Assembly: GCA_014360195.1 (NCBI GenBank)
Contig: JACIXY010000003.1
Coordinates: 17,100-81,099 of the forward strand
From: Bacillota bacterium
GTDB taxonomy: Bacteria; Bacillota; SHA-98; UBA4971
Direction of reading: 5' to 3'
Length of the DNA: 64,000 nucleotides
Each line of letters begins with the position of its first letter. Position 1 is the stretch's first letter. Positions 54,917 to 55,507 of the stretch are shown here, one piece after another. Under the pieces are notes generated by a model. It had not been told where the DNA came from. It made no database searches and saw only the letters and a list, made by a program, of their open reading frames with translations. A program made the position numbers and the translations under genes.

Positions 54917-55507
54917 ATGGACGGTATGTTCGGCGCATTCGAAGCGTTCAATGTCCTGACCCACCTGGGCCTTCGGGACATGCAGGAAGTCATCAGGGTT
55001 GCAGCGGCCCACCCACGGGCGGGCGTGCTGGCGGCATCGGCCATAAGTGCGGGTATAGCGATGGCTTCCGGTCTCGGGCCAGGCATCGGCCAGGGTTACG
55101 CTGCAGGCGAGGCGGCAGACGCCGTCGGGCGGAACCCTGCAAGGCGCCCGGACATCACGATGATAATGCTTCTGGGACAGGCGGTGGCAGAGACATCCGG
55201 GATCTTCTCGCTTGTCGTCGCCATGCTTCTCCTCTTCGCAAACCCGCTGGCGACCCAGCCTGGGCCACCGCTCGTGAGGGCCGCCGCCACTCTCGGCGCC
55301 GGGCTTGCGATGCTCGCGGGAATAGGCCCTGGCATCGGCCAGGGGTACGCTGCAGGCAAGGGGGCCGAGACCGTAGGGCGGCGCCCCGACCTGCGGATGG
55401 AGATAACGCGAACAATGCTCCTGGGTCAGGCGATCTCGCAGACCACAGGGCTGTACGGTCTCGTCATTGCCCTCGTGCTCATGTTCGCACCGCCCATAGC
55501 GGGCTGA
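54917..55507 (+). CDS. atpE: Fused double-hairpin (4-TM) F-type c subunit; carboxylate present only in hairpin 1
   Basis: Two tandem c-subunit units: [23 protein letters not shown]...[23 protein letters not shown] and [23 protein letters not shown]...[24 protein letters not shown]92 is GAG at 55190-55192; the equivalent Q175 is CAG at 55439-55441. The start may be ATG 54980 instead. Confidence 0.88.

Follow-up and report, generated by a model that had tools for sequence, protein, structure and literature searches.

The question raised by this locus is whether an F-type ATP synthase turns on a rotor made solely of a fused, double-hairpin c subunit, or on a ring in which such a subunit has a single-hairpin partner. 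In the window (the whole 64-kb stretch of DNA that was analysed), one c-subunit ORF lies directly 3' of atpI and atpB. A reading made from the letters alone (the sequence-only reading) had taken it as the only c subunit, without a partner, and thus as forming a homomeric V-like ring. Our analysis indicates that the ORF is very likely atpE1, encoding a c1 subunit, with the remainder of the ring coming from a single-hairpin c2 encoded together with atpF-H-A-G-D-C approximately 15.4 kb downstream, beyond a block of other genes. The Fo genes of the window and the parts of the c1 protein are:

53375..53746, plus strand: atpI (123 aa), the assembly-factor gene heading the Fo genes (Pfam ATP-synt_I, E 6.4e-06, 27 bits against a cutoff of 25.1)
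54251..54910, plus strand: atpB (219 aa), the F-type a subunit (Pfam ATP-synt_A, E 8.3e-47)
54917..55507, plus strand: atpE1, a 196-aa c1 subunit in which two fused F-type c hairpins come after an N-terminal extension (Pfam PF00137 and match to 4BEM_J)
54917..55024, plus strand: N-terminal extension, residues 1–36, kept in close orthologues in the alignment and helical at low confidence in the model
55025..55246, plus strand: hairpin 1, residues 37–110, with the Na+-type motif Q59...E92-T93-S94
55232..55282, plus strand: Pro-rich inter-hairpin linker, in frame, free of stop or frameshift; a linker is present in all aligned orthologues
55274..55495, plus strand: hairpin 2, residues 120–193, with Q142...Q175-T176-T177, the carboxylate being lost
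55584..55605, no strand assigned: GC-rich hairpin GGGGGAGCC-ACCA-GGCTCCCCC, read from the sequence, without a T tract, located where atpE1 and the permease gene converge

The atpE1 product matches PF00137 (ATP-synt_C) in two stretches (E 1.8e-34; 118.2 bits against a Pfam cutoff of 24) and is, by this gathering score, an F-type ATP synthase subunit c. The ORF begins with ATG, 6 nt after the atpB stop, and comprises 196 codons. Codon 92 is GAG (Glu; 55190–55192) in the motif AVAETSG and codon 175 is CAG (Gln; 55439–55441) in the motif AISQTTG, while the helix-1 motif is shared by both hairpins, its Gln being Q59 in the first and Q142 in the second. Two near-identical DNA repeats of 27 nt start at 55082 and 55331, a spacing of 249 nt or 83 codons, and the two hairpin-coding halves share 65% identity in DNA and 57% in protein. 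E92 and Q175 are invariant across the 10 aligned c1 orthologues, as are the G-x-G-x-G-Q-G motifs. AlphaFold2, run on this 10-sequence alignment, gave a model of low confidence (pLDDT 55, pTM 0.52), in which four long helices and an N-terminal helix are predicted at the expected places. The fused double hairpin with one carboxylate (E92) and Gln at 175, as described in the sequence-only reading, was confirmed by the PF00137 stretches, the codons and the alignment with 4BEM_J, and the duplication that it had reported at the DNA level was recovered within 1–2 nt of where it had been placed.

The fused gene could be an artefact, in which a lost stop codon joined two tandem ordinary atpE genes or codon 175 was miscalled. 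Against this, the window sequence, fused part included, recurs at 100% identity over 2968 nt in a Logan contig of independent origin (L086, SRR11866717), and a contig of a different run (L172, SRR28822773) matches it at 99.3% identity over 10 kb. Nine further c1 orthologues (56–99% identity), from the metagenomes and MAGs of different projects, each retain a single continuous frame and Gln175, and the crystallised c1 of Acetobacterium woodii is likewise fused, with Gln. Since the fused frame is conserved over independent assemblies, the merged-gene explanation was rejected and its probability is negligible. As far as assemblies go, L086, L172 and the nine orthologues thus uphold what had been read first, i.e. 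a linker free of stop or frameshift and CAG at codon 175. An exact-sequence look-up of the window c1 returned one match only, the 2968-nt Logan contig, and that of the window AllG returned no match.

In a phmmer search of all PDB chains, the top match of c1 by far was the c1 subunit of the A. woodii F1FO ATPase (4BEM chain J, E 1.3e-57), with residues 37–194 aligning to residues 24–181 of the 182-aa chain at 59% identity over 158 aa. This match bears out both the likeness to A. woodii c1 and the Na+-type Q/E/T motif of hairpin 1, which had been proposed before. Hairpin 1 shares 66% identity with A. woodii hairpin 1 and 58% with hairpin 2, and hairpin 2 shares 61% with A. woodii hairpin 2 and 57% with hairpin 1. 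Since each hairpin is closest to its A. woodii counterpart, the values fit a duplication that preceded the divergence of the two lineages. Both proteins are double hairpins of four transmembrane helices with ETSG in hairpin 1 and QTTG in hairpin 2; in addition, a 12-residue motif of hairpin 1 is identical in the two, Q175 is matched in the alignment by the Gln in AVAQTTG of A. woodii c1, and the A. woodii c1 gene also directly follows atpB in an F-type atpI-B-E1... cluster. The c2 of the window's lineage is 86% identical to that of A. woodii. Several differences were found as well: 1) the aligned core is preceded by 36 residues in the window c1 but by about 23 in A. woodii c1, so that the N-terminal extension (about 36 residues) is longer than the unaligned N-terminus of the latter; 2) A. 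woodii carries two identical c2/c3 gene copies, whereas the window's relatives carry one c2 gene; 3) a catabolic block of about 15.4 kb splits atpE1 from atpE2 in the window's lineage, unlike in A. woodii; and 4) the organism belongs to an uncultured 62.6% GC Bacillota lineage of anaerobic digesters and not to Acetobacterium.

Other known systems place c1 in the same family. The c1 type was defined in Clostridium aceticum by Q....ET in one hairpin and Q....QT in the other (PMC7911925), and the window c1 has this combination on fused F-type hairpins, with its gene in the placement typical of c1, directly 3' of atpI-atpB, both F-type. In C. aceticum, c1 occurs with a single c2 gene and the ATPase is Na+-stimulated (PMC7911925). 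Its atpE1/atpE2 (CACET_c02150/60) encode the same c1 motifs as the window and exactly one single-hairpin c2, and the c1 halves are 58% identical, as compared with 57% in the window (PMC7911925); the C. aceticum operon is contiguous, whereas that of the window's lineage is split by the inserted block. Four helices with one carboxylate are also found in the V/A-type proteolipids of Enterococcus hirae (NtpK, 2BL2) and Eubacterium callanderi (A1AO c, PMC9171764), both with one site per two hairpins. However, V/A-type proteolipids form homomeric rings and are encoded in V/A-type operons, whereas the neighbours of the window c1 gene are the F-type atpI and atpB and its relatives all carry such a partner. 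V-type chains are only remote matches (NtpK, 3.9e-4; eukaryotic V-type c, 1.8e-6) compared with 1.3e-57 for the F-type c1, and c1 neither lies in a V/A operon nor is closest to V/A c/K subunits. The c subunit of Ilyobacter tartaricus (c11 ring, 1YCE) has the same Na+-type signature as the window c1 (helix-1 Q, helix-2 E-S/T) and 59–62% identity to each of its hairpins, but is a single hairpin forming a homomeric ring, in contrast to the fused double hairpin, and its Y70 is replaced by Phe in hairpin 1 of the window (GIFSLV), as also in A. woodii c1.

Within the window, atpE1 is followed by convergent genes of a catabolic block:

55696..64000, minus strand: proximal 8.3 kb of the block of about 15.4 kb, running off the window end (Pfam)
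55696–56949, minus strand: xanthine/uracil permease, convergent with atpE1 (Pfam)
57018–59354, 59351–59848 and 59869–60732, minus strand: three subunits of an XDH-family molybdenum hydroxylase (Pfam)
60931–61740, minus strand: cyclase (Pfam)
61765–63174, minus strand: AllG (Pfam), followed by the start of AllF, which is cut by the window end

It is this region that makes a ring with c1 as the sole c subunit conceivable, i.e. a V-type-like rotor in an F-type enzyme with the ions per ATP halved: a phmmer search of the 64-kb window (E up to 10) detected no second c ORF, no F1 Walker motifs were found in it, and the genes next after atpE1 are convergent and unrelated. The genes for b, delta, alpha, gamma, beta and epsilon, however, are also needed and are also missing in the window, and in the relatives they are linked to atpE2.

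The relatives were followed beyond the block by a contig scan with b-subunit alignment. Two of them (L007, c1 90% identical; L009, c1 86% identical) have the window's gene order at about 83–85% nucleotide identity, with about 84–85% over the part 3' of atpE1. Their downstream sequences were found on the same contigs (L009 and L176 on JBLNDA010000020.1, L007 and L178 on JBLNDE010000064.1, with identical overlaps), and both carry, on the same strand and 15.5–15.75 kb after atpE1, a 90-aa atpE2 (…GQGF…AIAETTGIY…) followed by atpF-H-A-G-D-C. The closest sequences spanning the downstream region are L189, with 94% nucleotide identity to window positions 61227–64000, and L175, with 93%. In these two, AllG-AllF-AllH-PucR on the minus strand are followed on the plus strand by genes for hypothetical, thiolase-like and ChsH2-like proteins and then by atpE2-F-H-A-G-D-C; likewise, the block continues in L172, L175, L176, L178, L187 and L189 through AllF, AllH, PucR, thiolase-like and ChsH2-like genes to atpE2. 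All relatives with the window's layout (L007+L178, L009+L176, L175, L187 and L189; 83–94% nucleotide identity) thus have atpE2-atpFHAGDC beyond the block, at a distance of 15.4–15.8 kb from atpE1. Transferred to window coordinates, atpE2 would lie at 70.4–71.0 kb (about 70,874 according to L189 and L175, the figure of 15.4 kb being the distance from the atpE1 stop at 55507 to position 70,874), and the window stops at 64.0 kb.

In other relatives, the two c genes are 0.46–0.7 kb apart. L167, from a biogas fermenter (c1 93% identical), has atpI-B-E1, a 494-nt spacer, a 90-aa atpE2 and then F-H-A-G-D-C; L001 (c1 85% identical) has the same order with a 76-aa remnant of the permease C-terminus between E1 and E2; and in L008 (c1 79% identical) E1 is followed by a 157-nt remnant homologous to window positions 62191–62347 (AllG) and then by E2-F-H-A. 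The c2 with Q....ET and atpFHAGDC, absent from the 64-kb window, are therefore either adjacent or 15.4–15.8 kb away in all relatives. Since the window ends approximately 6.4–7.0 kb short of the position of atpE2-atpFHAGDC in the relatives, the lack of a c2 in it is uninformative on the genome, and the gene order of these relatives makes it almost certain that the single-hairpin partner is located past the window end, some 15 kb downstream of atpE1. The window's strain is traceable only to about 65.5 kb (L172, 99.3%), so that its atpE2 is deduced from relatives of no more than 94% nucleotide identity. In none of the relatives is c1 the sole c subunit, and we infer the same for the window's own genome, which probably shares their distal end.

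Whether a single-hairpin partner is the rule was asked of 79 species-representative loci carrying a multi-hairpin F-type c gene. All 79 also have a c gene that encodes one hairpin with a Glu, adjacent in 77, the other two being L007 and L009 with the partner 15.5 kb away. In a further locus (L192, from a Desulfobacterales-type genome; 8001–8975), an 82-aa c gene and two b genes come next after a 4-hairpin c gene, and no lone multi-hairpin F-type c gene was found among these 79 loci and L192. With a partner in 79/79 loci and atpE2FHAGDC beyond the block in every relative of the window's layout, a homomeric ring is very improbable; if true, it would make this the first F-type enzyme to run on a rotor purely of the V type. 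Of the sequence-only reading, therefore, the statement that the ORF is the only c subunit holds for the 64-kb window, as phmmer showed, but not as implied for the genome, since the relatives carry atpE2-atpFHAGDC downstream, and the homomeric V-like ring built on it was not sustained, given atpE2 in all relatives and the single-hairpin gene in every locus sampled. The claim of a sole c subunit arose because the window boundary falls inside an insertion that splits the operon. A bias toward ATP-driven pumping had also been suggested, for which the premise is weaker than stated, since ATP is made at 87–90 mV by an A1AO enzyme whose c subunit is purely of the V type (PMC9171764).

Multi-hairpin c genes were found to vary widely. 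Those with 3, 4, 5 and even 6 fused F-type c hairpins are common in Clostridia and in Desulfobacterales-type genomes (P0002–P0120; L010–L085, L192), with carboxylate patterns EQQ, EEQ, EQQQ, EQQE, EQEQ, EQQQQ and EQEQEQ, and a single-hairpin c gene follows each of them. Full-text searching of the literature yielded no description of an F-type c subunit with three or more hairpins, which is not proof that they are undescribed.

The junction between atpE1 and atpE2 appears as a structural hot spot (window 55508–64000; L001 10964–11194; L008 10595–10751; L167 10532–11025; L179 1–1886). The full block of about 15.4 kb is present in the window, L172, L175, L007+L178, L009+L176, L187 and L189, and the junction is reduced to the permease remnant in L001, to the 157-nt AllG remnant in L008 and to a spacer with no recognisable remnant in L167, while in L179 XDH/cyclase sequence abuts atpE2. 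L167 and L189, without and with the block, respectively, come from the same biogas-fermenter project (PRJDB5067), and L167 is about 93–94% identical to L175, which falls into the b-subunit cluster of L189. E1 and E2 are adjacent in outgroups, and the c genes are together in the fetched locus in 77 of the 79 loci. Judging from what is left of it in L001 and L008, the block probably entered the atpE1-atpE2 junction in an ancestor of the clade; afterwards, it may have been lost, wholly or partly, several times. With several deletion variants at this locus, a strain-specific difference in the window's strain is possible.

Two further observations concern these loci. The block resembles a purine/oxamate catabolism unit (55696–64000, continuing in L189 1–9235), with a permease, a Mo-hydroxylase, oxamate carbamoyltransferase AllF/AllG/AllH and a PucR-type regulator. 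The contig of L179 (JBLNCC010000121.1) was deposited as 'Betaproteobacteria bacterium MAG135', but its atp operon shares 83–99% protein identity with this Bacillota lineage (98% for both atpA and atpD in comparison with L001), and it is probably mis-binned.

Since the block lies mostly on the strand opposite to the atp genes, atpI-B-E1 and atpE2-C would form separate transcripts. The position of atpI is syntenic with that in L001, L007, L008 and L009, and the window atpB shares 81–87% identity with those of the relatives. Scans for consensus promoters and terminators found nothing in 53100–55750 (atpI-atpE1) or upstream of atpE2 in L189; the GC-rich hairpin at 55584–55605 was not called by the terminator consensus and may be regarded as a putative terminator. 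The Rfam scan of the 64-kb window at the gathering threshold gave 0 matches.

The atpI-atpB spacer is unusually long (504 nt) and is filled by one long copy of a dispersed intergenic repeat starting GGGTTGCCGGTGTTGCACTC. Seven copies are present in the 64 kb, as against 0 expected by chance (823–842, 13512–13531, 24414–24433 and 41986–42005, the latter two on the minus strand, and 51178–51297, 53211–53230 and 54017–54135), and others were found in L007 (6312–6465 and 17322–17479) and in L189 upstream of atpE2 (approximately 9297–9365). The repeat occurs in a short form of about 45 nt and a long form of about 120 nt, with inverted ends (…GTGCAA.CACCGGCAACCC) that pair into a hairpin; a second small hairpin, CTCCCGAAAGTCGGGAG, often comes next. 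It has no Rfam match; a REP/MITE-like element and a structured RNA are both conceivable.

The separation of the two transcripts bears on another explanation, namely that c1 is a decaying relic, poorly expressed or unassembled, and that the working ring is a homo-oligomer of c2. With a block of at least 15 kb in between, most of it on the other strand, the transcription of atpE1 is uncoupled from that of atpE2-C, and 53100–55750 contains no consensus promoter. On the other hand, c1 is intact in species-level relatives (74–99% identity) with E92, Q175 and G-x-G-x-G-Q-G invariant, the essential atpB is in the same transcription unit as atpE1, and c1 is a genuine ring component in A. woodii (4BEM; PMC9171764). 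We thus regard a relic as quite improbable.

By analogy with A. woodii and C. aceticum, the most likely arrangement is a Na+ rotor containing both c1 and c2. In c1, one Q/E/T site is complete and the other has Gln in place of the carboxylate, and the c2 of the lineage has a complete Q...ET site. From the structure and biochemistry of A. woodii, whose rotor contains nine c2/3 and one c1 (PMC9171764), as does 4BEM with nine c2 chains and one c1, c1 and c2 would co-assemble in one ring, with c1 probably a minority component as in A. woodii (9:1). The coupling ion would be Na+, in view of the conserved motif and the biochemistry of A. woodii and C. aceticum. Since c1 fills two hairpin positions yet would carry one Na+, the Na+/ATP ratio would be slightly lower; the A. 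woodii ring, in the 4BEM paper, reportedly has 11 hairpins with 10 sites.

With separate transcription units and gain and loss of the block, the lineage could also set the c1:c2 ratio independently and form rings with more than one c1. We consider this unlikely; if true, a variable c1:c2 ratio would allow the Na+/ATP ratio to be adjusted to the energy supply. Its extreme case, a window strain lacking c2 with a ring of c1 only, is exceedingly improbable. The natural variants with and without the 15-kb spacer could show whether gene linkage controls the c1:c2 stoichiometry.

Taken together, the evidence points to atpE1 as another member of the known family of Na+-F1Fo enzymes with hybrid (c1 + c2) rotors, in an uncultured high-GC Bacillota of biogas digesters. 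The locus also illustrates that an operon split by an insertion can be cut by a fixed window, and that a gene absent from the window is not thereby absent from the genome. Judging from the surveyed loci, hybrid rotors are far commoner and more diverse than would be expected from the two that have been studied.
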